This document shows, piece by piece, positions 1-14,928 of a DNA stretch of 64,000 nt. The notes beneath the pieces were generated by a model. That model did no database searches. It was not told the DNA's origin and saw only the letters and a list, made by a program, of their open reading frames with translations. The DNA comes from Kiritimatiellia bacterium (GTDB lineage Bacteria; Verrucomicrobiota; Kiritimatiellia; RFP12; UBA1067). The position numbers were made by a program, and so were the translations under genes. Position 1 is the stretch's first letter; every line of letters starts with the position of its first letter. The stretch lies in contig JAKSOW010000001.1 of assembly GCA_024405395.1 (NCBI GenBank), forward strand, positions 6,277-70,276. Direction: 5' to 3'.

Positions 1-130
1 TCCTATAACTCTGTACCGCATCGGCAAAAAGCGCTGGATCCTGTATTTTGTCCCATGACGCATAGACGAAGATTGCGGCAATCCCAATTCGCAACACGCC
101 CTCAACAACAAGAACAAGCTTCTGCTTCAT
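1..130 (-). CDS. DoxX/MauE-like membrane protein, N-terminal fragment (gene continues past the left edge)
   Basis: The ATG at 130..128 overlaps the stop of the preceding small ORF (ATGA). My reverse-complement translation is MKQKLVLVVEGVLRIGIAAIFVYASWDKIQDPALFADAVQSYR. It is hydrophobic, and the xxLRIxxxxxFxxAxxDKIxDPxxFAxxVxxY pattern resembles DoxX-family N-termini. Confidence 0.5.
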   Translation of the reverse strand, partial: MKQKLVLVVEGVLRIGIAAIFVYASWDKIQDPALFADAVQSYR

Positions 131-318
131 GGCTCATCTCCTGTTTCGGACTCTCCGCTCTGGTGTGTTTCCGGTCCCGTCCACGGTATGCGTTGCTCTT
201 CGTAGACGCGCAGATTGTTGGCGATGCCCAAAAGCATCGCCAACACGATAATCGCAACCACAACAATCCAATTGAATCGCCACCCCCAAAAAGAAATTTC
301 CAGCCTGCTCATGCGCAT
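127..318 (-). CDS. small single-pass membrane protein (hypothetical)
   Basis: This is part of track ORF 127..375. ATGs at 318 and 312 lie just downstream of the protease stop (333). The product MRMSRLEISFWGWRFNWIVVVAIIVLAMLLGIANNL... has one clear hydrophobic helix followed by an acidic tail. Its stop overlaps the next ATG. Confidence 0.35.
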   Translation of the reverse strand: MRMSRLEISFWGWRFNWIVVVAIIVLAMLLGIANNLRVYEEQRIPWTGPETHQSGESETGDEP

Positions 319-332: not shown

Positions 333-2015
333 TCACTTCACCACCACGGGCCAGGACATTGCGGGTTTCTTGCATACGGCAACACCTCGACCAACGCCAT
401 CAACAACAAGCCCATTCACCGTAAATTTGTACTTCGCAAGTTTGGTGCGGCCATTATTCGTCTCTAGTGCATAAATTGTGAAAGTGCCCTTGAATATTCC
501 CGTCTTGGCCGCGAACGAAAGCTTCACACCCGCATTGTTCTCAGCTTCTGGATCATACTGAAGCTCCATCTCCTGGGTTTCGCGATTCTTTGCGTATTTC
601 ACCTTACCGGCCTTGGGGAAGGTCCACTTGGCGCCCGCGACATCAAAGGCCGTTCCGTCTGGCGTCAGGCTAGACAACCAATCAAATCCCTCAGAAGAAG
701 ATGCGTCAACGGAAAGGATCGCCGTACCGTTTTCCAATCCTCCGACAATTGCCTTCTTGACGGAATAACCTTCCGTGTGCAAACCATCGCTTTCAAGCAC
801 ATATCCCTGTGCCGGATCATAGTCCACAACAATCGCCACATCGTTCACTGGCGCCTTGAACGAGAGCAGGCCAGAGATTCGATTCCCCTTCGGAGTGAAA
901 GACTTGGCCTTGGCGGCAACCTTCTTGCCATTGGGCAGAATGATGGATCCGGACACCTTGACTTCATTCTTCTTCTGGTTGTATTTCCCAAGCTTCAGCT
1001 GTACAATTCCCGCAACTTCATCACCCGCATCAATGAGAGCGCCCGAAACGGTCACAGCCTTGGTGTAGGCTGTCGTCACGTCAGGAATCGGCGCAGGCGT
1101 GGGATCGTCCTTGGGATCCTGCGGATCTTTGGGGTCAACCACAGGATCTTTCGGCTTAACACTCTTGCGAAACGCCGCAACAATCGCAAAATTGTCCTTG
1201 ACGGTCTTGGCGTTGTTGTGATTGGCGTCACCCATCGGCACACCCTCGAAATCAATGTCCGGATTGGAGAAATAGGGGATCGTCTGCCAAATTTCAGAGC
1301 TTCCGGGTTTTGGCGTATAGGCAAGCAATGTCGCATAGTTGCCGCTTGACGTCGACAGATAGAATGCCGAGGAATAGGCATCATGGCAGGGGCCATCTGT
1401 CCCATCACCATCTCCATATGTGGAAACATCCGCATGACCCGCCCCCAAGAGATGCCCTATCTCATGCGGGACGACATAGCCATCCTCATGGGCAGCAGCC
1501 TCAACACTTGCGATACAGTAGGCATACGTCGAATATAGACTGGGGCTGGGCCACCCCGCATCAAACTCCCAACCAATACCTGCAGCCCCAGCGGCAATCC
1601 GCGTAAGCACGCAAACCACATCAGCACCCACTTTTTCACGGTACTGATGAACCTTATCCCAGTCATACCCATCTCGGACATGACCTTTTCCTGTATTGTC
1701 GCACACCACATCCGTCAGCATCGAAACGACGTCGCCCGTACCCGAGGACGGCACCAGCAATTCGCCTACCGAACGAAAATCACCTGCAGAAGAGATTCCA
1801 GAATTCGCCATGACGCGGTTGAGCTTCTCTACCGAACTGGCCGTAAGCTCCGAAGGCGACACGCCAGCATCACTTAGCCAATCCTGAGCTGATTTGTCGT
1901 ATACAAACAATACGTCAATTGTTGCGGCCATGGTTATGCCTGTTGCCATCAGGATCCATGCCGCCATTATCATTTTCTTCATGTCTTTATCCTTTCTTTC
2001 CCTGCTTGTGATCAT
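333..2015 (-). CDS. secreted zinc metalloprotease, metzincin (reprolysin/M12B-like) with long non-catalytic C-terminal region
   Basis: The zinc-binding motif HEIGHLLGAGHAD (HExxHxxGxxHxD) lies at about nt 1434-1466. The signal-like N-terminus is MKKMIMAAWILMATGITMAA. The ATG at 1982 is preceded by AGGA; the alternative ATG at 2015 overlaps the upstream stop as ATGA. The C-terminal ~250 aa share modules with neighbouring genes. Confidence 0.85.
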   Translation of the reverse strand: MITSRERKDKDMKKMIMAAWILMATGITMAATIDVLFVYDKSAQDWLSDAGVSPSELTASSVEKLNRVMANSGISSAGDFRSVGELLVPSSGTGDVVSMLTDVVCDNTGKGHVRDGYDWDKVHQYREKVGADVVCVLTRIAAGAAGIGWEFDAGWPSPSLYSTYAYCIASVEAAAHEDGYVVPHEIGHLLGAGHADVSTYGDGDGTDGPCHDAYSSAFYLSTSSGNYATLLAYTPKPGSSEIWQTIPYFSNPDIDFEGVPMGDANHNNAKTVKDNFAIVAAFRKSVKPKDPVVDPKDPQDPKDDPTPAPIPDVTTAYTKAVTVSGALIDAGDEVAGIVQLKLGKYNQKKNEVKVSGSIILPNGKKVAAKAKSFTPKGNRISGLLSFKAPVNDVAIVVDYDPAQGYVLESDGLHTEGYSVKKAIVGGLENGTAILSVDASSSEGFDWLSSLTPDGTAFDVAGAKWTFPKAGKVKYAKNRETQEMELQYDPEAENNAGVKLSFAAKTGIFKGTFTIYALETNNGRTKLAKYKFTVNGLVVDGVGRGVAVCKKPAMSWPVVVK

Positions 2016-5000
2016 TTTGCAAACATGTTAAACGGAACCGTAGAAGTCATTCGCTTCCCATTCACTTCTGTCTTGTAGCTGAAATAGCCGCTCGCAAAAG
2101 GCCGTTCTGCAAACTCTCCTGGAAAACTCTCTGCTATACACCCGCAGTCGATCCATCCAGGCGTCAATACTCCGCTAAAGTTCCCTTTGACTTCCTCTTC
2201 TCCAAAGTTAAATGTGGCTTTCCCAGAAACCAAACCTGAAGATGAATTTATCCGGCAAATTGCATCGGGGACTTCTTGACCCATGATTGAACAAACTACG
2301 GATTTCAAATCAAAAAGTCCAAGCCACGATTCAAGGGTAGTACGCTTTGCATAATATATGCCATAGCAGTCCAAGTCGGATGTAAATGCATCAAACTCAC
2401 CCACATGCCGCCATCGTGCGGCTACTCCTCTCACTGGACGAACAACCCGAGCAGTGGTCTCGTCTGCATAGTACTTTTCTCCGTTAGCATGAATTCGCAA
2501 TAAAGCCGAAAGAGAATCTCTCCTTTCCGCATGCAGAATCGGCAAGATTGCGTATTCCGAATCCTCTGGATCAATTGCCAACATTGATTTCGCGCTAAAT
2601 CTCGTACCTGAAGGAAGCGACCCCTTCAACCTAACAGTGCCAGTCTTCGAAACCGAAATCATTGCATATCCGGAACCTGTGAAATTACCGCCTGACACAT
2701 TTTCCACTCCAAATGCCATCGTGTAGTAACCAGCAAACGACCTCAGCTCTCCCATTGCCGAAGATCCAGAGGCACCACCAAACTCAACGCTCAAAACACC
2801 ACTGGCAGATAAGATCAACTTGAGGCTATGTTTGGGGGAAATGAGTTGCGCCGACGCCTCTCCTGAATCAGTATTCATGTATGACCAATAACCACTGAAG
2901 AACTTTGCTTGACTCGATAATTCAACAACCTTGGCCGAAAGTTTACCCGATTTGCTTTGTTTTAGGGTTACCATTCCCACCACATCCGAAGTTCCGTCAC
3001 CTGATGCCTTCACAAGAGGCACCGTCCACAAGCCGCCAACGCCAACAAATTGATTAAACTCACGTGGATCCATGATAGTTACCGTAACCGCCACAACGCC
3101 CGAAGGAATATTGGCATTGCCAATCTTTCTCGTCACCTCATACGAGAAATCAAATATTCCCTTTTTCTTTGCCTGGCCACGCAAACACACGGCTCCCGTC
3201 TGCTCATCAACGTAAAGCCTAAGCCCATTTGGCAATTGCCCCGATTTCTTCTTTACCGTAACCCGAGAGCAACCGTCAACCTCAACAGTTTCTAAAATGC
3301 ACTTCGTTTGGAATCCAACGTACGCGGAGGCCTCCTCATTACCGCTCCCTGGGACAAATTCACAGCTCACCTCCGCTGCATAACAAGAGGAGCCTCCCGC
3401 CACACGAGCAGGCATAGTTCCAGTCAATTTCAATACCGGTCGTAGTGATTGTGCATGTGATTTTCTAACTGCAAATTCCAGGGAATTAGTTCCACAGGCC
3501 ACCACAACTCCGTCTAAGACCAGAGATATCATCACGTCATGCGTGGAAGACACCGACACCGAGAAACTACCTGTTGAGAATCCCCGCAGAATAAACGCTT
3601 CAGCAGCATCACAGATTTGGAAATCAACTTGGGCTCGTCCCCCCGCTACCGACAGCTCCCGTCTAGTTGTGGAGACATAATCAGAAGACTCATCAGCACG
3701 ATTAGCCAATTTCAGAAGATCATCAAGCCGGGCGATGTTTTCCTCTGGATCATAGTAGCGAACATCAGAACCTATTTCACCATTACGGTCTCGCCATGTT
3801 GAGCAACGACCAACAACACGTCCCTTTCCGTCAATCAACAACAGCGTTGGTGTGCTGAGACGAGTCGCAGATGTTTCTGGTGCCTTCCACTCAGAAACTG
3901 AATTTCTGACACTTCGTTCGTGGGCGGCTAACACCAAAGGATCATCAGCATGCAACCCATGGCGAGACAAATATGCAGCACCACTAACCATCTTTCTTTC
4001 ATTCCCTGTATGGATGTGCTCCAAACCCGCGGCATAGGAAAGAAGATGCCCTGCATCTGCGTAAGTGTCGCTCTCTGAGAATGCCTGATCAAACAACACC
4101 AACTGTACCCGATTGTCCTCAAGCCAATCTCGGAATAGATCCGACGCAAAAAGTGATTGTTCCATCCCTTTACAATAGGGACACCATAAGACTCCTGAAT
4201 AAATCGCCAGGATTGCTTTAGCTTTACCCTCGACGACCTTACGACACGCAAGATCATAATCAAGTGTCCAATCCGAATACCTCAACTCCTCTATTGTGCT
4301 TTCCCCCACAAAATATGGATTTGTTGGCGAATTCACCTGGGCATCAACGCAATGCACAAATGAAGAAGAGACCACATCCCCCTTAGAGTCAATAAGAGAC
4401 AGCTCTATGCTCTTTCCTGTGGGAAACTCACATCCCAGAAACTTTTCAAGCGAGAGCGATACGATGGCATTCGTCTGTCCCATTGCCCAATGAATCGCAT
4501 TTGTAACTGGGGGCAGAACATTTCCAGGCCATGCAGCAACCAACAGATTATCGTCGGCAACACCTGGAAGACGCTTCAACGGAATATCAACAAACGACGT
4601 ATTCGACTCTATCTCAAGGCGATCACCCTCTCCGTCTGAGCATTGGAAACCAGCAACTGTACGATTTGTGGTGTAGGACCCGCAGAGTTTCTGAATGCTC
4701 TGTTCCAATTCTATCGCCAACAATTCCAACATTTCTGGATCATGCTCCGCAAGCGCGGAAAGAGACATCGCGGGGTCACGCGGCACAAGCATGCGTCCAG
4801 ATCTTCCAACAAAGCTCTCAGCCAAAGTCTCAACCCCATTCTTTGGCCACCATACACAGATGAACGGGAAACTGGTGAGCCAATTTCCTACAGATTTCGT
4901 GAATCCGGCACTACGAGCGAAATCACAGGCGCCCGTCCCCTCATTTACTTCAATATCCGCGCCAGAGGTACCTTGCACATAACAATAGACATAATCTGAA

Positions 5001-5269
5001 TGCTTCGTTTGCCAAGTGCGAAACGACTCGAGATTGACTGCCGTCTCAAGCTTTTCACACTCGCCACAAGAGGAATTAGCCCAAAACAACACCAGTGGAG
5101 CCTTAAGACTCTGTGCCAGGTTGGTAGCCGCGGTGAACGACTCAAGCCAAACGCCAGTCCTAGTTTCGTTCGAAACCTGGACTGGCGAATCAGCCTGCGC
5201 ATCCAGCGCCACCAAGGCGACAGTCACTGACAGTATCAGCGTGCCGATTCTTGAATGCAATACCGTCAA
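2012..5269 (-). CDS. large exported protein with two thioredoxin-like CxxC domains and an Ig-like segment
   Basis: The track ORF runs to 5419, but its first ~50 codons overlap the upstream gene and show no signal peptide. TTG starts at 5269 or 5260 give ...HSRIGTLILSVTVALVALDAQA, a signal peptide. The CxxC contexts are LVLFWANSSCGECEKLE and LAIYSGVLWCPYCKGMEQ. An Ig-like GQLPNGLRLYVDEQTGAV segment is present. The start codon is uncertain. Confidence 0.8.
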   Translation of the reverse strand: MTVLHSRIGTLILSVTVALVALDAQADSPVQVSNETRTGVWLESFTAATNLAQSLKAPLVLFWANSSCGECEKLETAVNLESFRTWQTKHSDYVYCYVQGTSGADIEVNEGTGACDFARSAGFTKSVGNWLTSFPFICVWWPKNGVETLAESFVGRSGRMLVPRDPAMSLSALAEHDPEMLELLAIELEQSIQKLCGSYTTNRTVAGFQCSDGEGDRLEIESNTSFVDIPLKRLPGVADDNLLVAAWPGNVLPPVTNAIHWAMGQTNAIVSLSLEKFLGCEFPTGKSIELSLIDSKGDVVSSSFVHCVDAQVNSPTNPYFVGESTIEELRYSDWTLDYDLACRKVVEGKAKAILAIYSGVLWCPYCKGMEQSLFASDLFRDWLEDNRVQLVLFDQAFSESDTYADAGHLLSYAAGLEHIHTGNERKMVSGAAYLSRHGLHADDPLVLAAHERSVRNSVSEWKAPETSATRLSTPTLLLIDGKGRVVGRCSTWRDRNGEIGSDVRYYDPEENIARLDDLLKLANRADESSDYVSTTRRELSVAGGRAQVDFQICDAAEAFILRGFSTGSFSVSVSSTHDVMISLVLDGVVVACGTNSLEFAVRKSHAQSLRPVLKLTGTMPARVAGGSSCYAAEVSCEFVPGSGNEEASAYVGFQTKCILETVEVDGCSRVTVKKKSGQLPNGLRLYVDEQTGAVCLRGQAKKKGIFDFSYEVTRKIGNANIPSGVVAVTVTIMDPREFNQFVGVGGLWTVPLVKASGDGTSDVVGMVTLKQSKSGKLSAKVVELSSQAKFFSGYWSYMNTDSGEASAQLISPKHSLKLILSASGVLSVEFGGASGSSAMGELRSFAGYYTMAFGVENVSGGNFTGSGYAMISVSKTGTVRLKGSLPSGTRFSAKSMLAIDPEDSEYAILPILHAERRDSLSALLRIHANGEKYYADETTARVVRPVRGVAARWRHVGEFDAFTSDLDCYGIYYAKRTTLESWLGLFDLKSVVCSIMGQEVPDAICRINSSSGLVSGKATFNFGEEEVKGNFSGVLTPGWIDCGCIAESFPGEFAERPFASGYFSYKTEVNGKRMTSTVPFNMFAK

Positions 5270-6048
5270 TCCATCACAGCCTTGACATACGCCGGGAAGG
5301 TATACGCTTCCGTGATTTTGGTTGCCTTCTGCAACTTGGCGGATATTTTCTTGTTGTACTTGATCTTCCAAGTTCCGAATGCCGAAGACCCTTGATTCAG
5401 CGAGCAAGTCTCCCCACACTCCAGACAGATAGGCCAGCCAGGTGCCGTAGCAGTGACGGCCTCCGTTCCCTCAATCTTCTCACACCAGTTGCAAGTCCCT
5501 GAAGTGGCTTTAGTGGTCACTACCGCACCCGGCAACATCCATCCGGCGAAGCTACCGCTGACAGGTGAAATGATTGAAGAAAGGAGCGTGCATGTATTCT
5601 TATCCTTGAGCACATTGTCCTTCAGAGACCCAAATCCTGATCCAACAAGATAGAATGTACCATCTTCTGAACTCAGAATCCATGTCAGTTCACATTTGGC
5701 GGCGCTTTTGTCAATACGATTGGCAATTGGCCACTCAAGCTTGACGTTCAAAGGTTTCTGACTGGTCACATTCCAGAAGAAGTAACCAAAAGCATTGGTG
5801 CTGCTCGTATAGGGCTCACCTTTGATCAACGTATCGCAGTCACATCCCCAGATCACACCCTTGATTGTGACAGATCCCTGTTTACGATACAACGTACTCT
5901 GATCAGTACGCATATCGCAAGCAACCATCTTGGGAGTTCCCGACTGCGTAACCGTAGTCTTAACCTTAATGTCTACTTCGTAGAACTGAGCATCTGCAGA
6001 AGCTGCTCCACAAAGCAGGAGCGCAAACAACATTACGATTGTCTTCAT
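5266..6048 (-). CDS. exported Cys-rich protein, unknown family (paralog of 13779..14657)
   Basis: The signal peptide is MKTIVMLFALLLCGAASADA. The protein has more than 10 Cys. It shares with the 13779 gene the motifs YEVDIKVKT/YDLTIKLKT, T[IL]KG[VI]IW.C, GTWK[IL]KY[NS]KKI and [FM]PAY.K at the C-terminus. Confidence 0.75.
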   Translation of the reverse strand: MKTIVMLFALLLCGAASADAQFYEVDIKVKTTVTQSGTPKMVACDMRTDQSTLYRKQGSVTIKGVIWGCDCDTLIKGEPYTSSTNAFGYFFWNVTSQKPLNVKLEWPIANRIDKSAAKCELTWILSSEDGTFYLVGSGFGSLKDNVLKDKNTCTLLSSIISPVSGSFAGWMLPGAVVTTKATSGTCNWCEKIEGTEAVTATAPGWPICLECGETCSLNQGSSAFGTWKIKYNKKISAKLQKATKITEAYTFPAYVKAVMD

Positions 6049-6078
6049 TGTCTTACATCCTTTTTCAATTTTACTAGC

Positions 6079-6612
6079 TTAATCAATGGAGAACTCGGAT
6101 GTCCCAAGTTTGCTGGAGGAAGCTGTACCATACCCCTCGCTGCCGTCAAACGTACCACTGATTTTGACCGTGTACTTTTTGAGCTTCATCTTGGTGACAC
6201 CCTTCTTGGTTTCATATTCCTGCACACCATAGACCTTGAAGGATCCCTTGACTGTTCCCTTCTTGCGGTTGTAGGAAAGCTTAAGACCGGCATAATTAGA
6301 GCTTTTGTCCGAATCCTTGAGCACCAACTCGTAATCCCCATCAACCTTTTTCACTTTGACAGAAAGGGCCTTATCGGTTTTCAACTTCTTGCCTGTGAAA
6401 TAGACAGGCTCGCCATCCGGGAAAAGATCAGACTGAATTTCGATTTCATCATCCGAAATATCAAATCCATCATCCAGTGTGAATGTGAATTCGGAATCCT
6501 CATAACTCTCATCATCTTTGTCCTTATTTTTGGCAAAAGCCGAAGAGATCGGCGCAAGCACCAATCCTAACGCCAAAACACCAATTGCTGTCTTTACCCA
6601 TTTCCTGTTCAT
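6079..6612 (-). CDS. small exported protein, unknown function (shares C-terminal module with the metalloprotease)
   Basis: An AGGAG sits 7 nt upstream of the ATG. The signal peptide is MNRKWVKTAIGVLALGLVLAPISSAFA, followed by an acidic stretch. Its GLKLSYNRKKGTVKGSFKVYGVQ...KMKLKKYTVKISGTFDGSEGYG aligns with GVKLSFAAKTGIFKGTFTIYAL...TKLAKYKFTVNGLVVDGVGRG of the 333..2015 product. Confidence 0.75.
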   Translation of the reverse strand: MNRKWVKTAIGVLALGLVLAPISSAFAKNKDKDDESYEDSEFTFTLDDGFDISDDEIEIQSDLFPDGEPVYFTGKKLKTDKALSVKVKKVDGDYELVLKDSDKSSNYAGLKLSYNRKKGTVKGSFKVYGVQEYETKKGVTKMKLKKYTVKISGTFDGSEGYGTASSSKLGTSEFSID

Positions 6613-6639
6613 GATCAGTTCTCCTTTTTTTGTAAGAAA

Positions 6640-7719
6640 TCAATCTTCAGCCCTTTTGGCTTCTACCACCAATTGAAACTCGCGAACTACCTTGGTTGCC
6701 GCCACATCTCTCCCTTCAGCGGTCACGGTAATATTATAACATCCTTTTCGCCAAAGTGTACCAGAAAAAACACCTTCTTCTGAATCCAGCGAAAGTCCGA
6801 ATGGCATACCCTCTGCGCTGAATTTCATCGGCCGCGTTGCCTCTTCAACTTCTAACCGGAACTTGAATTTCTTCCCTACCTTCGCAATGATCGGTTGTTC
6901 TGGAACCGAAAATACCGGCGGCCTACAAGCAGATACATTCCTGAAATTGGCTGTATAGGTTCCCTCAGTCATACCAGAGTCAATGACTAGCTTACGAGCA
7001 TAACCTACACACCTTCCATTAGGATCCATCCATCCCCAAAACACGCTACCAGAATCATCGGCAATTGCCGTGATTACAACTGTACCACGTTCATCCGCAA
7101 GCTCCCCAGAGACTGGATCCATCTCAATTTTTCCACTCCCTCCTGTTTGAGTGAATTTGAAATACTTTGAGTCAGGACTATGCAATATCTCTTTGGGATT
7201 GGATAATTTTGCCGTATAATCAATCAAAATCTTGTCCAGAGCGGAAATCAATTCCATCTGAAGAAATTTATGTCGAATTCCAGGCATCGTTCCACGACGA
7301 CCAGAGAAAGTCCTTTTTACCTCTGTCCCGTCTTCTTTCTTCCAATATACGCAAACTATCGGTATACCAGTTACCTCCTTGAACCCCTCTCGTTGAAAAG
7401 CTTCTGTTTGCTTGAACTGAGGATTCTTGTCATTTATATGTACCATAAAAATCTTACGGTCATCTTGCCACATCTTGAAATCCGTACTATTCATGGATTT
7501 GTTCAAGCGATAACAGAAACTACATTCAGTTCCAGCACTGATAACTAGAATCGGCTTATGAGCTGATTTCGCAACCGCTAGTGCATTAGTGAAATTATCG
7601 CTCCATACACCTGGCGTAACTTCATGTACGATAGGTATTTTGGCGCTTACTTCATCCCGTCCATGACACAAGGCTGTTACTAATAAAAAAATGAATACCA
7701 CGAGCTTACTCATCTTCAT
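6640..7719 (-). CDS. exported thioredoxin-fold (CxxC) + Ig-like domain protein
   Basis: The ATG at 7719 overlaps the upstream TAA (TAATG). The signal peptide is MKMSKLVVFIFLLVTALCHG. The CxxC context is ILVISAGTECSFCYRLNKSM. IPIVCVYWKKEDGTEVKRTFSGRRGTMP is conserved in the paralogs. The Ig-like segment is AEGMPFGLSLDSEEGVFSGTL. Confidence 0.8.
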   Translation of the reverse strand: MKMSKLVVFIFLLVTALCHGRDEVSAKIPIVHEVTPGVWSDNFTNALAVAKSAHKPILVISAGTECSFCYRLNKSMNSTDFKMWQDDRKIFMVHINDKNPQFKQTEAFQREGFKEVTGIPIVCVYWKKEDGTEVKRTFSGRRGTMPGIRHKFLQMELISALDKILIDYTAKLSNPKEILHSPDSKYFKFTQTGGSGKIEMDPVSGELADERGTVVITAIADDSGSVFWGWMDPNGRCVGYARKLVIDSGMTEGTYTANFRNVSACRPPVFSVPEQPIIAKVGKKFKFRLEVEEATRPMKFSAEGMPFGLSLDSEEGVFSGTLWRKGCYNITVTAEGRDVAATKVVREFQLVVEAKRAED

Positions 7720-9551
7720 TAATTCCCTTCTTTCGTAACCAAATCTAACCAATTCGGTATGTAGAGTTCTGCCCCTGGAACCTGTTCAACCCAAGAAGGT
7801 GGCAAATCATAATCAGAAGACAACCGCCCTGCCAGACGACCAAGAATAACCCGCACCTCCATTTTCTTCTGTAAAGACTCATCTATTTTTTTCCATGAGA
7901 ATGGAGGAGAAAGGAAAATCAGTTTTTCAGGGATGCAGAGACCATGATCCTGACGGTTAAACGTTTCAAGGTATTCAGCACCTCTCCATCCAGCAAGTAC
8001 TAACGTTCGTGTCTTATCTGGCAAAGCCGAAAGTTTCCGCACGAACGCAATTGCTGGGGCATTAGTATGGGACTGGAAAAACTGTCGCATCTCCTTGCCT
8101 TGATAAATCTGATATCCGCCATCAAGAACTGCGTCATCGCCTACAATCCACACTTTGGGATCTTCTCCGTTAAGCAAAACGTGATCTGGGAATCCCTTTA
8201 TGGATACCAACTGTCTGCAATTCCTTCCCCATATACCTACCACTACAACGGCACCAAGAGAAATAACCACAGCCATACATACAGCCACCAAAATCACCCG
8301 CCGTCCAAAAGGTCTAAAATCTTTGAACCCAGAAACAAGTGAAAATATCGGCAACACCCAAAGAAGTGGCTCCTCCAACTCATGTGTGAAACAGGCTGAT
8401 ACACCAAAAGCCACAAAGACCGCAAACGGCAAAGATTTCTTGTCGCGAAACGCCCACACCGCAAACAGGAACATGAAAAACAGCCAAGCAAACACATAGC
8501 CAACACGCTCCATACAACCCATCTCTACAAGCCATGTCAAATGGCTATTCTGCAGCTCAGACACCGCCAACGGCGTATCAAAGGACTGATACCAGTCAAC
8601 ATAGGCACGACCCCCATTACCATAGCCCCAACCTGTGGGAGCATCCGCCATCATTCTCGGTACAGCAGCCCACATTGTTCGCCGATCGGTGCGGGGGTCT
8701 TGGGCAAGAAAACCGCTGGTAAACCTAGTTCCACCAAACTTAAATGCAATGCCACCAAGGGCAACCAGCAGCAACAACGCTACCAGAATTCTGCGGAACG
8801 AAAATAAATCCTTGAATTCCCTAAAATGTGGTACAATAAGGGAAACAATACCCAAAACGAATCCGAGAAGACATCCCCGCGACTGCGTAAGGAACAAGAA
8901 GACCAATGACGCCAAGAAAGGGATGACGGCAACCATCCCGAGAATTAACCGACGACCATGAAACAACACCAATGCCACGGATAGGAACATCACCGACAAC
9001 ATCATAAAGATGGCTGCCGTCTTGTTTGGATTGATGAATTCCCCAAAAGGAATCCGGAACCGACCTGATTCTTTCCAGATGTCTACAGAAGTGACATCAT
9101 CCAACATTCCTCTTTGTTTCTGCTCCCAAAGCTTAGGTATGGCTTCATCCGACTGTACAGGCTTGATGCGCTTAACAACCATCTGCTCCCGATCGAAGGT
9201 CATCTTGCGCAACGTTCCATTATAAAACTCAAATTCCGTCTGTCCCCCAGTAAAGTCATCACGCGTACGAACGGTTGTCCGCCCATATTCAGAATAACCT
9301 TCCCACGGATCTTGGGCGAGTAAACGGGAAGGATTCTCCCGATCACGATACAAATAGCGAACCGTTTGGTCGGGTTGGGTCAATCGGCAAACCTCATAAT
9401 TTATCGGGACGAAAGTGGATTCAACTACATTAGTACCCCATTTAGTTGGGTCAGTTCGAAACCCATAGTAGGCGAATGACACCCATGACTGCAACAGAAC
9501 TATTGCAATCATAAAAATACGACGAATTGACCATGACTTAAACATATTCAC
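7719..9551 (-). CDS. polytopic membrane protein, O-antigen-ligase/Wzy_C-like core with extra N- and C-terminal soluble domains
   Basis: The central region has about 10 hydrophobic helices. It includes FLTQSRGCLLGFVLGIVSL, which resembles the Wzy_C/WaaL signature region. A ~170-aa region separates the first hydrophobic segment from the core, and a ~190-aa soluble tail follows it. The start is GTG 9551 or ATG 9545, 2-8 nt after the upstream stop. Confidence 0.7.
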   Translation of the reverse strand: MNMFKSWSIRRIFMIAIVLLQSWVSFAYYGFRTDPTKWGTNVVESTFVPINYEVCRLTQPDQTVRYLYRDRENPSRLLAQDPWEGYSEYGRTTVRTRDDFTGGQTEFEFYNGTLRKMTFDREQMVVKRIKPVQSDEAIPKLWEQKQRGMLDDVTSVDIWKESGRFRIPFGEFINPNKTAAIFMMLSVMFLSVALVLFHGRRLILGMVAVIPFLASLVFLFLTQSRGCLLGFVLGIVSLIVPHFREFKDLFSFRRILVALLLLVALGGIAFKFGGTRFTSGFLAQDPRTDRRTMWAAVPRMMADAPTGWGYGNGGRAYVDWYQSFDTPLAVSELQNSHLTWLVEMGCMERVGYVFAWLFFMFLFAVWAFRDKKSLPFAVFVAFGVSACFTHELEEPLLWVLPIFSLVSGFKDFRPFGRRVILVAVCMAVVISLGAVVVVGIWGRNCRQLVSIKGFPDHVLLNGEDPKVWIVGDDAVLDGGYQIYQGKEMRQFFQSHTNAPAIAFVRKLSALPDKTRTLVLAGWRGAEYLETFNRQDHGLCIPEKLIFLSPPFSWKKIDESLQKKMEVRVILGRLAGRLSSDYDLPPSWVEQVPGAELYIPNWLDLVTKEGN

Positions 9552-9553
9552 GA

Positions 9554-10195
9554 TTATTCGTCATCCTCTTCTTCTTGATTTTCCTCAAGCCATTTCTGAG
9601 CGGTGGCAACATTTTTCCAATCATCACCCGTCACGTATTCATAAGCTTCTTTCGCCGCCGCACGCGCAACACCATTACTGCTGGCAATAAGATGAACGAT
9701 GATATCAATAGACAAAGTAGGACGCAGATCGTTCAGTTGAAATGAAATTGATTCCATAACTTCACGATCACGAACCAACATCATGGTCTCCTCAATGAGT
9801 ACACCCTTTTCATGTTCATCCTCAATATCATTAATTGCCGAATCCCATTGATCCTGTGCCTCTGATCTAACGTCTTCATCGCGGTCAAGCAAAAACGGCA
9901 TCAACGCCCGTACAGATTTTTTTCCAAACCAGCCAATGGATTCAACACAACGCAAGCGAACTACTGCATTTTTCGAATTCTTGAGCTTTTCTACATAAGA
10001 CAATGCCTCCTGAAAATCTTCCTTCTCTACAGCATTCTCAAGATCAGAAACCTGCTTCTCTTCGCTAACCGTACATTCTGATGTCTCTACAACATTCTTT
10101 TGCATTTCCTTATCGGGTTCAGACTTGCCGCAACCGCTAAGTAGACAAACAACAACAGCAATACCGACTATATTCTTCATTTCTATCACCTTCAT
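9554..10195 (-). CDS. HEAT/PBS-lyase-like repeat lipoprotein
   Basis: The ATG at 10195 overlaps the upstream TGA (ATGA). The N-terminus MKVIEMKNIVGIAVVVCLLSGCGK contains the lipobox LSGC. VRLRCVESIGWFGKKSVRALMPFLLDRDEDVRSEAQDQW is HEAT-like. The tail is acidic. It is a paralog of 11688..12614. Confidence 0.75.
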   Translation of the reverse strand: MKVIEMKNIVGIAVVVCLLSGCGKSEPDKEMQKNVVETSECTVSEEKQVSDLENAVEKEDFQEALSYVEKLKNSKNAVVRLRCVESIGWFGKKSVRALMPFLLDRDEDVRSEAQDQWDSAINDIEDEHEKGVLIEETMMLVRDREVMESISFQLNDLRPTLSIDIIVHLIASSNGVARAAAKEAYEYVTGDDWKNVATAQKWLEENQEEEDDE

Positions 10196-11685
10196 GGCAA
10201 TGAGGCCAGAACTGTAACGTTGCCTTGACCCTGAATTTTTATTGTTCCTGTGATTTTGCCAGAATTCAAATCCAGACTTAACAAACCGATGACCACATTT
10301 TTCCCAGATTTCCTGAAAACAGGCAACCAGGTCGTTACGCAATCGGTACTCTCAACCAACACACTCTTGGTATTGATGCGAAGTCTATTTGGAAACGTTC
10401 CCTTTATTGAAACTACACCTGTCTTCGCTGCCGCCTTCTTCATTACCAACTGTAGTTCTGTTTCATTTTCAAGGATAATCTTACGGTCCATAACATAAAG
10501 ACTCGCAGGAGACTTTGCTGTCCAAAGTGTATGAGAGAAACAAATTCTACGCGACACACCATCTGTAGATATGAAATTTCCTATCAGCTGCCCTTCGGAT
10601 GTAACAGCTAACAAAAATGAACATCCCACTCCCGTTCCTGAAATTTCCAATATACCATCCGATGACAAACTTTTCCACCCTTTAGAAACCGCCTTCAACT
10701 TGTTATCGACACCATCATACTGGATTTTTGCCTGTCCTTTCTCCGAGAGTGTTAAGGATATTATTCCTTGCATCTCGCCATCCTCTGACAATATAAATCC
10801 ACTTGTCTTCACCGACTTTGTGATCGTGAAGGCAGAACAGACTTTAGAAACTGGAACCACAGTAATCGTTAGGGTAAATGTCTGACTGCCCTTCTCTATT
10901 CCTACATCGCGTTTTTCAGCCAGAATCCAAGAACTGGTAAACGTACCTGCTTTAGTTGGATTTCCTTTAAACAAAACCCGTTTAGAGACAGAATCATAGG
11001 ATACCTTTATTCCCGAAGGGAGTCTTCCAGAAGCCTTCTTTACCTGCACCATCCCACCTACCGTATTGGTTACTTGAAAGTATTCCTCAAAAGGAATATG
11101 CTGAACTGACTCAACAGTTGCATTCCGAAGCGCAAACGCCGGCATTGGCTGATCCATAGGTGCCGATGGTCTAGGAGAATCTAAAGTAGAGGAAAATGCA
11201 AAGCCCGAATCAACCAAAACCTTCTCAACTGAACTAGTCAACTGCAACGCTAGGGGCCCAAGTTTCACCGGCATGTATCCATCGCGACCAACAAAAGCTC
11301 TCTCAATTATCGTTCCATCTGTTTTTGGCCAATAGATGCAAAACAACGGCAACTCATTAATCCACGGATTAATAGATCGTATGAATTTAAGTCCTGCTTT
11401 TGCATCTGAATCGCCATCATGACATACGCTCATTATTATGCGGTGGTCATAAAGCCATTCCTGAAAATCAGCACTATCTAGTGCTGACTTCATCTGATTG
11501 CACATTGGACATGAGCTACGTGCCCACAATAACAACATAGGAGTGCATGTCTCGTTAGCATAGCTAAGACCCTTGGAAAACCCCGCATTCCACTCACCTA
11601 AACATATCTCTCCCCTAGAAAAAGAAAAAGCCCATACACTGAAAACTAGAATGATATTAAAAGACAGTACCAAAATTTTTTTCAT
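10192..11685 (-). CDS. exported thioredoxin-fold (CxxC) + Ig-like domain protein
   Basis: The signal peptide is MKKILVLSFNIILVFSVWAFS. The CxxC context is MLLLWARSSCPMCNQMKSAL. ELPLFCIYWPKTDGTIIERAFVGRDGYMP is conserved with the paralogs. The Ig-like segment is GRLPSGIKVSYDSVSKRVLFKGNPTKAGTF. The start lies 2 nt after the upstream TAG. Confidence 0.8.
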   Translation of the reverse strand: MKKILVLSFNIILVFSVWAFSFSRGEICLGEWNAGFSKGLSYANETCTPMLLLWARSSCPMCNQMKSALDSADFQEWLYDHRIIMSVCHDGDSDAKAGLKFIRSINPWINELPLFCIYWPKTDGTIIERAFVGRDGYMPVKLGPLALQLTSSVEKVLVDSGFAFSSTLDSPRPSAPMDQPMPAFALRNATVESVQHIPFEEYFQVTNTVGGMVQVKKASGRLPSGIKVSYDSVSKRVLFKGNPTKAGTFTSSWILAEKRDVGIEKGSQTFTLTITVVPVSKVCSAFTITKSVKTSGFILSEDGEMQGIISLTLSEKGQAKIQYDGVDNKLKAVSKGWKSLSSDGILEISGTGVGCSFLLAVTSEGQLIGNFISTDGVSRRICFSHTLWTAKSPASLYVMDRKIILENETELQLVMKKAAAKTGVVSIKGTFPNRLRINTKSVLVESTDCVTTWLPVFRKSGKNVVIGLLSLDLNSGKITGTIKIQGQGNVTVLASLP

Positions 11686-11687
11686 TG

Positions 11688-12614
11688 CTACTCTCCTTCA
11701 GAATTTTGCCCTTCTTCTTTTGAAATCGTTTTATCAAAATTTTTTCTCTCTGGTATATCGTACTCTGTGTCGTTTATGATTTTCATACCAGAAATATCTA
11801 TTTCTGGGTCAAATACCTCTGGGTGAAGAGATGCTCGATAGACTGGTATGTCATCAGATTCTTCTGACAAATCAATGTTCTCATTGACCCAGGCTTGTGC
11901 AGCCTCAAACGTCGTATACTCCTCCCCTGTTAGAAAAGAATAAGACTCAAGTGCTACATCCACAACATCTGGATTCTCACTATTAATCAAGGCTACCACT
12001 GACTCAATCGCCGTAAAAGTTGATAGTTCATTCAAATTAAAAGCGATATCTTCCAACATATCACGGTCTTTAATCACACCCATTGTAGCTTCAATAATTG
12101 TAGCCTTAACACGCTCATCTTCGACTTGACCTAAAGCAGATAACCAAAGATCTTGTGCAGCATCACGAACATTTTCATCCTGATCAACAAGAAAAGGCGT
12201 CAACTCAGGAAGGGCTTCCTCATTAAACCAACCAAGTGCCTCAATGGCTCTAAGGCGAACAATCTCATTTGTGGAATTTCCCATTAGTTTTGCAAGTTCT
12301 TGAACTGTAGTGAAATCCTCGGCATTAAGAGCTTTATCAACTTCATCAAACAACCGTCGATCCTGTGGCGAAACCTCATCAGGAATTTGAGATCGATCAA
12401 CTTTTCGTTTTTCCCGCCTTAATGTATTAACTTTAATGCTCGTATCCCTTATCTCAACTAGTTGCTTAACATTTGCCGGTTTGCGCCTTGATATACGCAT
12501 TCCAGTTCCAGATCTATTAGTTTGCCCCTCAGTCTCTTTATTGGTTGAAATATTGAAAATGAAAATGGCTATCGTGAATAAAATTACTGAAACTAAAAAA
12601 ATCTTAATTTTCAT
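11688..12614 (-). CDS. HEAT/PBS-lyase-like repeat protein with N-terminal membrane anchor
   Basis: The ATG at 12614 lies 1 nt after the upstream TAA. The N-terminus is MKIKIFLVSVILFTIAIFIFNIS. VRLRAIEALGWFNEEALPELTPFLVDQDENVRDAAQDLW aligns closely with the 9554 gene product. The tail is acidic. Confidence 0.75.
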   Translation of the reverse strand: MKIKIFLVSVILFTIAIFIFNISTNKETEGQTNRSGTGMRISRRKPANVKQLVEIRDTSIKVNTLRREKRKVDRSQIPDEVSPQDRRLFDEVDKALNAEDFTTVQELAKLMGNSTNEIVRLRAIEALGWFNEEALPELTPFLVDQDENVRDAAQDLWLSALGQVEDERVKATIIEATMGVIKDRDMLEDIAFNLNELSTFTAIESVVALINSENPDVVDVALESYSFLTGEEYTTFEAAQAWVNENIDLSEESDDIPVYRASLHPEVFDPEIDISGMKIINDTEYDIPERKNFDKTISKEEGQNSEGE

Positions 12615-12615
12615 T

Positions 12616-13692
12616 TTACTTCTTCCTTTTACGCGTTGGGAAAACGATACCTTCTCCATAAGGATATTTGATAATCGCTTTCTTACGCAAATCGCGAATA
12701 GTATTCCCGATAACCTCTTCCTGTCGTTCCTTAATCAATTCACGTTTTATGAATTCAGGATCCTCGTCAAATATTATGGCTGTTCGCCAAACAATGCGGG
12801 CAAGATGGCGAGCAAATACTGTTCCATCACCATTCACATCTTCTTTATCGCCCAAAAATTTTACTATCTCTATCCCATCATCGGTTGTCATAACATCTGT
12901 AATCTCACCAGGCTTTAAACATACTATGCTCTCCCAATAAACTGGGGCTTCCATTGAGAAGTCATCAGCCGTGCAAAAACCCAAGTCACCTCCTGGATTT
13001 TTTTCTTCATCCTGTGAAAAATCATCAGCCAGCTCAGAGAAATCTGCACCAGCCCTTGCCCTTGCCAAAACGTTAGTTGCTTCTGCATAAATGTGAATAT
13101 TTGTCTGCACCATACGCGCATTGTATGCAATCGTTTGCGCCACTTGATTTGAAATTGCTTCGGCAGATACCAGCATTTGAGTTGCCAATGCCGTCTTAAT
13201 GTAGTGCTGGCTCCATAAATCCAGCTCTAGCATCTCTTCAATCACATGACAATTAACACCTTTATCAAAGGAACAAAGTTGTTTGAAAGACATTCCTTTT
13301 TTACCATAGCTTAACGCATATTTTTCCTGAAGCTTCAACCTTTCTTCTTTTGTTGGCACAAAATTCATCCGTTTTGCTTCACTTGCCAACAATGCCATCG
13401 GAAAAAAGTTTTGATATTCTTTCTCCCGAAACCGCGTCTTTAGCATTTGAAACTTATGATCTGCTATAGTACCGACTTTCGCTTTGGCAAAACTCAATTT
13501 TGCCATAATTTGACCCTCATATTGTCCCTTGGTCAACTTTATACCATTGACTTCTACAAGCACCGAGTCAGAGTTGAGGCTACTATATGTTTCTCTCGTG
13601 CCTTTCGCACCATAAACATTGTTTATCCCGAAAGTAAGAAACAACAAAACTATACGAACAATTTTAAATGGAGTATAAGTTTTCATTTCCAC
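12616..13692 (-). CDS. exported SurA-N/parvulin-type peptidyl-prolyl cis-trans isomerase
   Basis: The N-terminus is signal-like (IVRIVLLFLTFGINNVYG). The PpiC/parvulin signature region is GGDLGFCTADDF...LKPGEITDVMTTDDGIEIVKFLG. The preceding helical region resembles the SurA/PrsA N-terminal chaperone part. Confidence 0.8.
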   Translation of the reverse strand: MEMKTYTPFKIVRIVLLFLTFGINNVYGAKGTRETYSSLNSDSVLVEVNGIKLTKGQYEGQIMAKLSFAKAKVGTIADHKFQMLKTRFREKEYQNFFPMALLASEAKRMNFVPTKEERLKLQEKYALSYGKKGMSFKQLCSFDKGVNCHVIEEMLELDLWSQHYIKTALATQMLVSAEAISNQVAQTIAYNARMVQTNIHIYAEATNVLARARAGADFSELADDFSQDEEKNPGGDLGFCTADDFSMEAPVYWESIVCLKPGEITDVMTTDDGIEIVKFLGDKEDVNGDGTVFARHLARIVWRTAIIFDEDPEFIKRELIKERQEEVIGNTIRDLRKKAIIKYPYGEGIVFPTRKRKK

Positions 13693-13705
13693 TGCTATCT
13701 CAAAT

Positions 13706-13744
13706 GTAAAAAGCGGGAGGAAGCACTTTCATGCATCCACCCGC
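13706..13744 (-). terminator. candidate rho-independent terminator after the 13779 gene
   Basis: On the minus strand, GCGGGTGGA pairs with TCCTCCCGC (one T:T mismatch) and is followed by TTTTT. A second perfect hairpin, TTATTCGCC-GAAG-GGCGAATAA, lies at 13757..13778 directly after the stop. Confidence 0.45.
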
Positions 13745-13778
13745 CTTGTCTCAATTATTCGCCCTTCGGCGAATAACC

Positions 13779-14899: not shown

Positions 14900-14928
14900 A
14901 TCATATCAAAAGTCGTTTTGCCTTGCAA
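14900..14928 (-). promoter_or_regulatory. candidate sigma70-type promoter (TTGCAA-17 nt-TATGAT) for the 13779 gene
   Basis: On the minus strand, TTGCAA is at 14928..14923 and TATGAT at 14905..14900, with a 17-nt spacer. This implies a 5' leader of about 235 nt before the ATG at 14657. Confidence 0.4.

Follow-up and report, generated by a model that had tools for sequence, protein, structure and literature searches.

Small outer-membrane barrels such as the OmpA N-domain, OmpX/Ail, NspA, PagL and the OprF N-domain carry a signal peptide and form an 8-stranded up-and-down barrel of long strands, in which both termini emerge on one side among short turns, and long, variable loops occupy the other. 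The ompA gene itself is monocistronic, very highly expressed, and preceded by a long 5′ UTR. In the MauD/MauE system, a MauE-family membrane protein and a thioredoxin-fold CxxC protein are encoded beside the small subunit of methylamine dehydrogenase, an exported protein rich in disulfides, and mauD and mauE are functionally linked to its maturation. Curli combine a highly expressed major subunit (CsgA) and a minor one (CsgB) encoded with accessory factors. Within the PVC superphylum, the chlamydial envelope complex comprises MOMP, OmcA, and OmcB under DsbA/DsbH-type redox control, MOMP being a larger, porin-type barrel of ~40 kDa. Two reports describe the chlamydial envelope as having an abundant cysteine-rich barrel whose state is set by dedicated periplasmic thiol-disulfide oxidoreductases (PMC549562, PMC4217174).

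Two genes, here called A and B, in a 64,000-nt stretch of a Kiritimatiellia contig (the window; Table 1) encode cysteine-rich proteins that share features with these systems. Our best explanation, held tentatively and with less than even confidence, is that A (minor) and B (major) are disulfide-stapled, 8-stranded envelope barrels specific to Kiritimatiellae, with B as a major outer-membrane protein. Both resemble the small outer-membrane barrels in signal peptide, predicted topology, and strand length, and the B unit is laid out like that of ompA. No sequence relation to these barrels was detected, however (Pfam up to E 5; PDB sequences searched by HMM held nothing significant, the best match being a NEDD4 E3 ubiquitin ligase at E 0.6). 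The classical proteins have few or no Cys and a terminal aromatic β-signal, whereas A and B have ten Cys and conserved helices at the end. The hosts of A and B belong to the same superphylum as the chlamydiae, and no homology to MOMP, OmcA, or OmcB was found, with no Pfam or NCBIfam match of any kind. The chlamydial proteins are cross-linked by intermolecular disulfides; for A and B, Cys counts were compared (below). The MauD/MauE system differs from the present cluster in substrate fold and pathway; the cluster has no MADH or TTQ genes and adds a prolyl isomerase (PPIase), a Wzy_C protein, HEAT proteins, and a metzincin. Curli are β-solenoid amyloids of unrelated fold, whereas A and B are predicted closed barrels, their cluster has no CsgG-like channel, and the models give no sign of polymerisation.

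Table 1. Features of the A/B locus in the window, in coordinate order.
Feature	Position	Strand	Basis and details
MauE/DoxX-family membrane protein, start, cut by window edge	2..103	-	tblastn with L017 genes
Small membrane protein	145..312	-	tblastn with L017 genes
Exported reprolysin/metzincin-like zinc protease (HEIGHLLGAGH), shared C-terminal module	333..2015	-	Pfam Reprolysin_5/_3/_4
Giant exported protein, two thioredoxin-fold domains (CGEC, CPYC), repeated beta domains	2012..5269	-	Pfam Thioredoxin_2, Thioredoxin_7
Gene A (MJ240_00050), operon-embedded minor copy of Cys-rich predicted barrel family	5266..6048	-	ORF; 260 aa
p177, 177-aa exported protein consisting of the shared ~130-aa C-terminal beta module	6079..6612	-	BLASTP
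Exported thioredoxin-fold protein (CSFC) fused to He_PIG Ig-like domain	6640..7752	-	Pfam
Polytopic Wzy_C membrane protein (O-antigen ligase / PglL / Wzy family)	7719..9551	-	Pfam Wzy_C 4.4e-13
HEAT-repeat lipoprotein	9554..10342	-	Pfam HEAT_2
Exported thioredoxin-fold protein (CPMC), C-terminal beta domains	10192..11685	-	BLASTP to the other two thioredoxin-fold proteins
HEAT-repeat protein, N-terminal membrane anchor	11688..12659	-	Pfam HEAT_2 9.8e-10
SurA/PrsA-like parvulin prolyl isomerase	12616..13692	-	Pfam Rotamase_3 1.4e-12, SurA_N_3 2.5e-4; NCBIfam PrsA/SurA-type models
Two hairpins	13705..13778	-	directly 3′ of B stop; UUUUU after the second resembles an intrinsic terminator
Gene B (MJ240_00090), major copy	13779..14657	-	ORF; 292 aa from MKKLMIAAAV
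B 5′ leader	14658..14893	-	~236 nt, structured; MFE -83.7 kcal/mol, z -3.1 against shuffles
B promoter	14900..14928	-	consensus scan; sigma-70-like, -35 TTGCAA, 17-nt spacer, TG-extended -10 TATGAT

Judged by their sequences, A and B are true paralogs. In a full-length BLASTP alignment they share 26% of residues (E 9e-9), and the Smith-Waterman score of the mature proteins is 131, compared with 35.6 ± 5.8 for 500 shuffles (z = 16.5). The shared motifs listed in the initial annotation are all present: YEVDIKVKT (A) and YDLTIKLKT (B) near the N-terminus, then YRKQGSVTIKGVIWGC and YYKNGKRTLKGIIWNC, a central GSGF and GLGS, the C-terminal strands GTWKIKYNKKI and GTWKLKYSKKI, and FPAYVK and MPAYAK close to the end. 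The same annotation called the C-termini almost identical, which holds for the motifs and is overstated for the segment as a whole, given a 5-residue indel; the fixed spacing in its pattern fits neither protein, KKI and [FM]PAY being separated by 15 residues in A and 10 in B. The middle parts, said to differ strongly, differ mostly by loop insertions on one common barrel. In tblastn of A and of B against the whole window the sole match was the other copy (E ~1e-6), with no third family member. Homologs of A have 48-80% identity, and A as a query also matches the B-position genes of loci L005, L010, L011, and L015, so that intermediates link the two subfamilies. Protein B is identical to an NCBI hypothetical protein from a Kiritimatiellae MAG, and its ORF extends mechanically upstream as far as a GTG at 14750. 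A classical n-h-c leader with an AxA end (MKKLMIAAAVAA..A.A) can be read in A (residues ~1-18), B (residues 1-19/20), and nearly all homologs; this agrees with the earlier description of an exported family and is the Sec signal peptide expected of classical outer-membrane barrels. We rejected A as a lipoprotein (LLLCG) because homologs do not keep this Cys and Leu stands at -1.

Grouped at 50% identity, the family falls into at least 569 clusters, and all sources with names are Kiritimatiellae or PVC metagenome bins. Rumen or gut Kiritimatiellae account for most of the related contigs, and locus L015 comes from a groundwater MAG. The family had gone unrecognised in the initial annotation, and we can put no name to it either: Pfam and NCBIfam searches of A and B, of 10 long homologs, and of the 38 aligned members turned up nothing consistent, and the source annotations all read 'hypothetical'. 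Our literature search found no description of Kiritimatiellae envelope or cysteine-rich outer-membrane proteins; only chlamydial or unrelated papers surfaced. The A/B family looks undescribed, and an abundant envelope protein of the B type looks new for the phylum. In the 38-sequence alignment G64, C69, C71, G138, G165, G169, C208, G225, and K230 are invariant, and W67 and C211 are at least 90% conserved. Long members carry an Ala/Glu/Lys-rich helical tail beyond the barrel; were the C-terminus periplasmic, this tail could reach across the periplasm. Some homologs have tails that are Pro/Thr/Ala-rich or form long coiled coils.

AlphaFold (AF2) predicts for both proteins an elongated 8-stranded meander β-barrel followed by 2-3 short C-terminal helices (pTM 0.77 for A and 0.81 for B; strand pLDDT > 90). 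DSSP strings and the alignment place both termini on one side, where the turns are short and conserved (a 5-aa R..KKA.K and a 4-aa turn), while the opposite loops hold the indels and most of the Cys. In the models, this even-stranded meander with same-side termini and long loops opposite has the topology of classical outer-membrane proteins. The strands are 13-18 residues long, and one face of each bears 4-6 alternating hydrophobic or glycine residues. The outer membrane is our most likely final location for A and B, which we tentatively read as embedded in it; OmpA is the top Foldseek match. Several features speak against embedding. The hydrophobic-face pattern is equally expected from a soluble barrel packed around a hydrophobic core, and several invariant Gly and Trp lie on that face, as one would rather expect in a packed core than at sites facing lipid. 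Turn T1 (10-18 aa) exceeds the usual length of periplasmic turns, and none of the 38 aligned members matches an outer-membrane barrel Pfam model, even at E 5. The C-terminal aromatic β-signal is absent, the proteins ending after short helices in ..FPAYVKAVMD and ..MPAYAK; it is our conjecture that the last strand, G-T-W-K-[IL]-K-[YF], the best-conserved motif, acts as an internal β-signal.

These features could instead mean that A and B are soluble barrels of a calycin-, PsbO-, or AttH-like kind, with a hydrophobic core or ligand cavity, found in the periplasm, secreted, or bound loosely at the surface; we regard this as somewhat unlikely. A possible ligand is a lipid or polyprenyl-linked intermediate handled by the Wzy_C protein; alternatively, they might be structural periplasmic proteins. 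PsbO at Foldseek ranks 2-3, the core-like Gly and Trp, and C-terminal helices as in lipocalins, without a terminal aromatic or an outer-membrane Pfam match, are consistent with it. However, strands of 13-18 residues with asymmetric loops are characteristic of small outer-membrane barrels, ~8 aromatics on the 'polar' strand faces, W67 among them, would face solvent in a soluble protein, and the extreme expression signals of B are better suited to an envelope protein with a structural role than to a carrier. There is no sequence match of A or B to PsbO, the CrtC/AttH lipocalin-like domain, avidins, or YceI. The lipocalin/calycin signature of 8 strands and a C-terminal helix with SCR motifs and structural similarity is not reproduced, GxW/SCR motifs being absent at the expected positions; in A and B the strands are also much longer than those of avidins or lipocalins, and there is a cysteine-rich loop cap.

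The mature paralogs have 10 Cys each, 4 at one end of the barrel and 6 at the other. They include CDC (69-71), CNWC (186-189), CLEC (208-211), and CGETC (211-215) in A and CKSAC (81-85) in B, much as the initial annotation had described them (CDC, C..C, CxxxC). Across the family the Cys count has a mode of 10 and is odd in about half of the members, so not every disulfide need be intramolecular. The B subfamily has its own N-terminal tail with two invariant Cys and low pLDDT. A metal site at the invariant Cys pairs is unlikely, because Cys spacing varies between subfamilies (CxC against CxxxC, and CxxC against Cx6C). A and B are exported, have conserved Cys, and are encoded with exported CxxC thioredoxin-fold proteins, as is characteristic of Dsb-type clients, and we infer from this that their Cys form and pair in disulfides.

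A lies within a coupled operon, as had been proposed: its ATG follows the stop of the upstream gene by 30 nt, and the downstream giant likely starts, to judge from the sequence, at a TTG at 5260 or 5269 that abuts or overlaps the TGA of A. The PPIase has an N-terminal signal or anchor and is always immediately downstream of a B-type gene. The two HEAT proteins are paralogous (E 6e-41), and the true start of the lipoprotein is likely an ATG near 10195, yielding MKVIEMKNIVGIAVVVCLLSGC with a lipobox. The CPMC protein matches the other two thioredoxin-fold proteins by BLASTP (1e-15 and 2e-26), and the CSFC protein matches He_PIG at 8.9e-8 and Thioredoxin_7 at 7.4e-5. All 25 thioredoxin-domain homologs retain the CxxC; one class, CP[HYDF]C, resembles the active sites of DsbA (CPHC) and DsbG (CPYC). 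The sole DsbH match in the cluster search was non-significant (0.0029, 17.7 bits against a cut-off of 190). The small membrane and MauE/DoxX proteins of L017 match the window at 2.6e-11 and 5.5e-11, and the pair lies within the cluster in both L017 (Pfam MauE/DoxX) and L012; the MauE/DoxX protein is a candidate membrane redox partner of the thioredoxin-fold proteins. The Wzy_C protein is present in all cluster loci at 30-37% identity; PDB sequence relatives that could separate a WaaL from a PglL function were sought and none was found. The metzincin matches the NCBIfam Mep72-like model at 3e-11, far below the curated cut-off. Its C-terminus matches p177 (BLASTP 5e-10), and this module also occurs in thioredoxin-fold proteins of other loci. 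A relation between the module and A/B, suggested by the strands LKLSYNRKKGT and GTWKxKYNKK, was rejected on an hhalign probability of 0.1%. GC content is lower in the cluster than in its flanks.

The gene order B, PPIase, thioredoxin-fold protein, Wzy_C, p177, HEAT, A, thioredoxin-fold giant, metzincin is found in at least 10 independent Kiritimatiellae contigs, in clusters of ~12-14 genes. That A and B are ordinary lineage-specific hypothetical paralogs, with functionally unrelated neighbours and synteny from close kinship, is very improbable. The related contigs are indeed mostly from rumen or gut Kiritimatiellae, and in L001 an A-type gene lies outside any such cluster. However, the order persists at 24-37% protein identity, including a contig in which A is only 37% identical, and across differing surroundings (dnaA-dnaN in the window and L005; rpoD/dnaE/CLC in L017). 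The cluster is also found in the groundwater locus L015, two diverged copies of it are present in L003, and 10-Cys proteins beside several CxxC proteins are functionally coherent.

B is a separate, strongly signalled transcription unit with its own promoter, structured leader, double hairpin, and extreme codon bias, in line with the earlier proposal. An A-rich tract lies upstream of the promoter, and the layout of an A/T tract, CCCCCTTGCG or TTGACG, and TATGNTACAAT is kept before the B-type genes of L003, L006, L007, L008, L010, and L012. None of 200 shuffles was as stable as the terminator hairpins (MFE -39 kcal/mol, z -5.5). The effective number of codons (Nc) of B is 35.6 at a GC3 of 0.51, with GGT at 88%, CGT at 100%, and AAG at 94%, compared with 48.9 for A and ~49-55 for all cluster genes other than B. 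This extreme bias, in a window that holds no ribosomal-protein genes as a reference, points to very high expression, and together with the expression signals it suggests that B is made at a very high level.

The pairing of a highly expressed major with a minor paralog would also be expected if A and B built a surface polymer with covalent cross-links, such as a coat, an S-layer-like lattice, or a fibre, in which B would be the major and A the minor or nucleating subunit, as in CsgA/CsgB. In such a polymer the thioredoxin-fold proteins would form intermolecular disulfides and/or the Wzy_C protein would carry out PglL-type O-glycosylation, with processing by the metzincin. The N-terminal Cys tail of the B subfamily, with its low pLDDT, recalls the Cys connectors found in Ena fibre subunits of Bacillus, and the odd Cys counts in about half of the family, the Wzy_C gene in every cluster, the Pro/Thr/Ala-rich or coiled-coil tails of some members, and a GC content below the flanks, as in many surface-antigen loci, also agree with a polymer. 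Yet both window paralogs have an even 10 Cys that can plausibly pair within one chain, AF2 predicts a closed monomeric barrel without a free donor strand, and profile and PDB searches did not separate PglL from WaaL function. PglL/TfpO-type acceptor segments are not obvious in the window A and B, which have no low-complexity Ser/Ala/Pro stretch. We judge a polymer distinctly unlikely.

In the favoured reading, with A and B as outer-membrane barrels, B would be transcribed alone from its strong conserved promoter through the long structured leader and made in very large amounts, and A would be co-translated with the accessory genes. After Sec export the SurA/PrsA-like isomerase would chaperone both chains, and the exported CxxC proteins would oxidise or isomerise their 10 Cys and probably be re-oxidised via the MauE/DoxX membrane protein. 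About 2 disulfides would form at the terminus-bearing side and ~3 would join the long loops L1 and L4 over the barrel seam. The barrels would sit in the outer membrane in an OmpA/OmpX-like manner, termini and short turns in the periplasm and long variable loops outward, with B as the major structural protein. The Wzy_C protein, HEAT lipoproteins, and metzincin would serve the same envelope layer through glycan ligation, scaffolding, and processing, respectively. These accessory roles in the A/B pathway we infer from the cluster. More broadly, and rather doubtfully, the cluster may specify an undescribed envelope build: a stapled, possibly cross-linked or glycan-ligated barrel B with minor A; a private oxidative folding system of DsbA/DsbG-like CxxC proteins and a MauE/DoxX oxidase in strict anaerobes; a Wzy_C ligase; secreted proteins that perhaps dock through a new C-terminal module; and a novel and deeply conserved leader RNA of ~300 nt governing B. 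Such an envelope would give free-living PVC bacteria an equivalent of the chlamydial cysteine-rich outer-membrane complex.

Kiritimatiellota are common polysaccharide degraders of gut, rumen, and sediment. The large unnamed family, its predicted fold, and the ~12-14-gene cluster are new; through the conserved cluster, the family is linked with protein folding, with disulfide chemistry, and with an enzyme resembling glycan ligases. Should B be the major outer-membrane protein, it would offer an entry point to the envelope architecture of the phylum and would be a candidate for the dominant surface antigen or a phage receptor. Strict anaerobes would then provide a case of disulfide formation by a dedicated extracytoplasmic system, an evolutionary parallel to the chlamydial envelope with its many cysteines.

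Separately, the leader RNA may represent a new cis-regulatory RNA family. Rfam searches of the window and two leaders gave no family, with only sub-threshold chance matches to MicA (16.6 bits) and a snoRNA. The leader in the window is a diverged form of one that is highly conserved in relatives; it matches their covariance model (R1) in part, by one hairpin and CUGAAU (9.7 bits at 14818..14749), and we did not accept it as a full member on this match. Among the relatives, B-type leaders are conserved as well as or better than the coding sequence and contain 14 compensatory pairs, and the model recovers the leader of L005, on which it was not trained, at E 1e-37.

We find that the two cysteine-rich exported proteins encoded in the window, A (260 aa) and B (292 aa from MKKLMIAAAV), are genuine paralogs. 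Both open reading frames lie where the initial annotation had placed them, and both match exactly NCBI entries annotated 'hypothetical protein' (MJ240_00050 and MJ240_00090); the source is a Kiritimatiellae metagenome-assembled genome. Their alignment spans the full length of both at 26% identity (BLASTP, E 9e-9), the Smith-Waterman score without signal peptides is 131 vs 35.6 +/- 5.8 for control shuffles (z 16.5), and a six-frame search of the window with either protein returns the other copy as the sole match. Each mature protein has exactly 10 cysteines. All of the motifs initially proposed as shared are found in both; however, the fixed C-terminal spacing is wrong, with 15 residues from KKI to [FM]PAY in one copy and 10 in the other. 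The observation is genuine, correctly interpreted, and no artefact.

Single-sequence searches recovered 37 relatives for A and 29 for B, none with a name beyond 'hypothetical'. In a joint alignment of 38 sequences, G64, C69, C71, G138, G165, G169, C208, G225, and K230 are invariant and Y23, K30, T31, Y54, W67, W92, K118, C211, W227, and P252 are near-invariant. Among 1.84 billion 50%-identity representatives, the profile of this alignment matched 569 clusters at E <= 1e-3, of which 422 also passed E <= 1e-10; in a 90%-identity database a profile search returned hypothetical proteins only, with Kiritimatiellae as the sole organism names. A scan of GTDB species genomes yielded 11 family loci, from rumen Kiritimatiellae and 'uncultured Verrucomicrobia' bins, one groundwater MAG, and one Kiritimatiellia MAG (EPI_MAG_00117). 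No Pfam or NCBIfam model gave a consistent match to A, B, 10 long homologs, or the 38 members of the alignment, and no PDB sequence matched the family profile significantly (best E 0.6). The family, which the initial annotation did not recognise, is real, sizeable, lineage-restricted, and undescribed, and the A/B pair is not one already characterised.

AlphaFold2 with the family alignments confidently predicted all-beta structures for A (pLDDT 79.6, pTM 0.77) and B (pLDDT 78.8, pTM 0.81). Reading the DSSP strings of the models alongside the alignment, we obtain for both an 8-stranded up-and-down barrel whose strands span 13-18 residues; 2-3 short helices come after it, and the N- and C-termini lie on one common side. 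On that side strand 2 ends in the conserved Cx(1-3)C hub, and two turns are found there, one of 5 residues with the conserved R..KKA.K motif and one of 4 residues. Long variable loops stand on the opposite side: L1 and L4 in both proteins, with large insertions in L2 and L3 added in B. The strongly different middle parts noted initially are explained by these loops. Of the ten cysteines, four are on the side of the termini and the other six in L1 and L4, loops that adjoin across the barrel seam; this arrangement suggests 2 + 3 intramolecular disulfides. A structure search with A gave the lipocalin-like CrtC/kievitone hydratase as best match (9.0), then designed barrels, OprF, PagL, and NspA (about 8), while Foldseek returned weak matches with OmpA and PsbO foremost; as modelled, the fold class is clear and the specific family is not. 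Seven homologs (P0016-P0018, P0101, P0114, P0128, P0140) add to the barrel 130-300 Ala/Glu/Lys-rich, probably helical residues that match no Pfam domain, and the last four of these end in a C-x(3-7)-C loop.

The two genes had been assigned to different transcriptional settings, and both assignments hold. B forms its own, strongly signalled unit, with a promoter, a structured leader and, 3′ of its stop codon, two strong hairpins with U5 after the second (MFE -39 kcal/mol, z -5.5). B-type genes in six other loci have a conserved A/T tract, -35 element, and extended -10 TATGNTACAAT upstream. The codon usage of B (Nc 35.6 at GC3 0.51; GGT 88%, CGT 100%, AAG 94%) stands apart from that of every other cluster gene (Nc 49-55) and bears the usual signature of translational selection in a gene expressed at a very high level, as B probably is. 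A lies inside a coupled operon, since it starts 30 nt past the upstream gene's stop and its TGA abuts or overlaps the TTG with which the following gene starts.

Relatives have a leader of about 295-300 nt whose conservation equals or exceeds that of the coding sequence; between the related loci L007 and L010, for example, identity reaches 86% in the leader against 56% in the CDS and 45% in the protein. RNAalifold predicted 63 pairs in these leaders, 14 with compensatory changes. A covariance model of the 128-nt core found two instances outside its training set, one in L005 (E 1e-37) and the other a second L003 copy, ahead of a third family member. The RNA additionally occurs in L017, L019, and L020, and the genes most closely related to the window's B carry it too. 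The window leader was rejected as a full member, matching only in CUGAAU and the hairpin C(A/C)GGGUAGCUCC(U/G)G (9.7 bits); it is a diverged version. Rfam has no family for this RNA which, judged from sequence, is a candidate for a new cis-regulatory or mRNA-stabilising element.

Genomic context is the most informative result. A and B belong to a co-conserved set with a PPIase chaperone, several CxxC oxidoreductases, MauE/DoxX, Wzy_C, HEAT lipoproteins, and a protease. The same genes recur, in almost unchanged order, in L003/L004, L006-L013, L017-L019, and L005, the last with an A homolog of just 37% identity. Chromosomal neighbours vary (dnaA-dnaN in the window and L005, rpoD/dnaE/CLC in L017), and the groundwater MAG (L015) keeps its family member together with PPIase, HEAT, and thioredoxin-fold (Trx) genes. 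The PPIase gene directly follows the B-type gene in every case, and the A-type gene usually just precedes that of the large thioredoxin protein. CxxC is retained in 25/25 thioredoxin-domain homologs, one class having CP[HYDF]C, with dipeptides of the DsbA/DsbG type. The MauE/DoxX gene and its small partner are cluster members in the window, L017, and L012; the L017 pair precedes genes for a polyprenyl synthase and a UbiE-type methyltransferase, a hint of a quinone-linked path by which the Trx-fold proteins of an anaerobe could be re-oxidised. A ~130-aa C-terminal beta module (..LPDG..W.GKKFK.PKAGKVKY..NP.GLKLSY..KTG.FKGSFKVY..KLK.YTAKVSGY..GYG.ATIKKVG..) occurs in several secreted cluster proteins, namely the 177-aa exported protein p177, the metzincin (at its C-terminus), and Trx proteins at other loci. 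Pfam has no model for this module, which may serve them all for docking or sorting. Its kinship with A/B is ruled out (hhalign probability 0.1%). Cluster GC (333..14657) is 0.458 vs 0.54 in the next 12 kb and 0.63 in the rest of the window (15280..64000), and most related loci (L017, L010, L012, L001) dip as well, though less, by 3-9 points; low GC is common in surface-structure loci.

We infer the function of the pair: B would be an abundant structural envelope protein whose 10 cysteines may be oxidised by the cluster's own thioredoxin-fold proteins, and A its low-abundance partner. We tentatively favour outer-membrane embedding of the barrels because the strands number eight and are long, the turn/loop pattern is asymmetric, small outer-membrane barrels come closest in structure, a gene for a SurA-like protein always lies alongside, the pattern is comparable to that of ompA (high monocistronic expression, long 5′ UTR), and some homologs bear TolA-like Ala/Glu/Lys-rich helical tails. 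However, invariant glycine and tryptophan lie on the strands' hydrophobic faces, which may point outward or inward, A and B are without the terminal aromatic signal, the 38 aligned members match no outer-membrane barrel profile, and soluble barrels score nearly as well in structure searches. These same observations speak for a soluble barrel, periplasmic or secreted, which we consider somewhat less likely; that A and B form a cross-linked or glycosylated surface polymer seems improbable. The nearest functional analogues are OmpA/OmpX-type small barrels, the chlamydial cysteine-rich outer-membrane complex, from the PVC superphylum like the A/B host, and, as regards the logic of maturation, the way exported proteins rich in disulfides are formed with the help of MauD/MauE. 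A and B fail the sequence-homology test for all of these and are therefore best described as a new family of exported beta-barrel envelope protein within an undescribed accessory cluster.

Features of the window and related loci; numbered genes follow the minus strand of the window from 14657 down to 1
Feature	Locus	Coordinates	Strand	Remarks
Promoter of B	window	14928..14900	-	TTGCAA-17-TATGAT, upstream TG
Leader of B	window	14658..14893	-	about 236 nt; fold -83.7 kcal/mol, z -3.1
1 B	window	13779..14657	-	
2 SurA/PrsA-like parvulin PPIase (prolyl isomerase)	window			
3 HEAT protein	window			
4 Thioredoxin-fold protein	window			CPMC
5 HEAT lipoprotein	window			
6 Wzy_C membrane protein	window			O-antigen-ligase family
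7 Thioredoxin-fold + He_PIG protein	window			CSFC
8 p177	window	6079..6612	-	
9 A	window	5266..6048	-	
10 1135-aa protein, two thioredoxin domains	window			CGEC, CPYC
11 Reprolysin-like metzincin	window			
12 Small membrane protein	window			
13 MauE/DoxX-family membrane protein	window			incomplete at window edge
Pair 12 + 13	window	2..312	-	
Pair 12 + 13	L017	18352..18986		
Pair 12 + 13	L012	16566..17109		
C-terminal module	window	6079..6612, 333..1100	-	
C-terminal module	L003	~12489..13220		
C-terminal module	L012	~17142..		also in others
Leader RNA	L003	9838..9966		
Leader RNA	L003	8226..8099	-	
Leader RNA	L005	6014..6139		
Leader RNA	L006	1044..1170		
Leader RNA	L007	3187..3315		
Leader RNA	L008	1240..1367		
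Leader RNA	L010	9839..9966		
Leader RNA	L012	9762..9889		
HTH_3 regulator	window	16248..16829	-	
HTH_3 regulator	L005	4902..5396		
Doubled cluster	L003/L013	1..20786		one rumen MAG
Integrase gene	L003/L013	8453..9562		phage-type
Basic-peptide ORF	window	15120..15206	-	29 aa
Hairpin terminator	window	15053..15078		bidirectional
3509-aa ORF	window	37854..48383	+	
2015-aa ORF	window	49537..55584	+	
1257-aa ORF	window	58449..62222	+	

One rumen MAG carries the whole cluster twice, as two diverged copies in divergent orientation, each copy headed by a family member with leader RNA, and the integrase gene lies between them. Both the window and the distant L005 have, between rlmL and the cluster, a gene for an XRE-type (HTH_3) protein with a C-terminal double zinc-ribbon-like Cys motif, which is a possible regulator of the cluster. 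Elsewhere in the window, a tiny ORF with a strong terminator after it encodes the very basic peptide MGSIKKKRRKKMSKHKYDKRMKAQRHKNK, which may resemble the small basic AURKAIP1/COX24-like proteins found in PVC bacteria. The high-GC half contains three very large ORFs, with PATR autotransporter repeats and a Laminin_G_3 domain (3509 aa), an ABC1/APH kinase-like domain (2015 aa), and a GH20 hexosaminidase domain (1257 aa); long antisense ORFs overlap all three, as expected at 65% GC.
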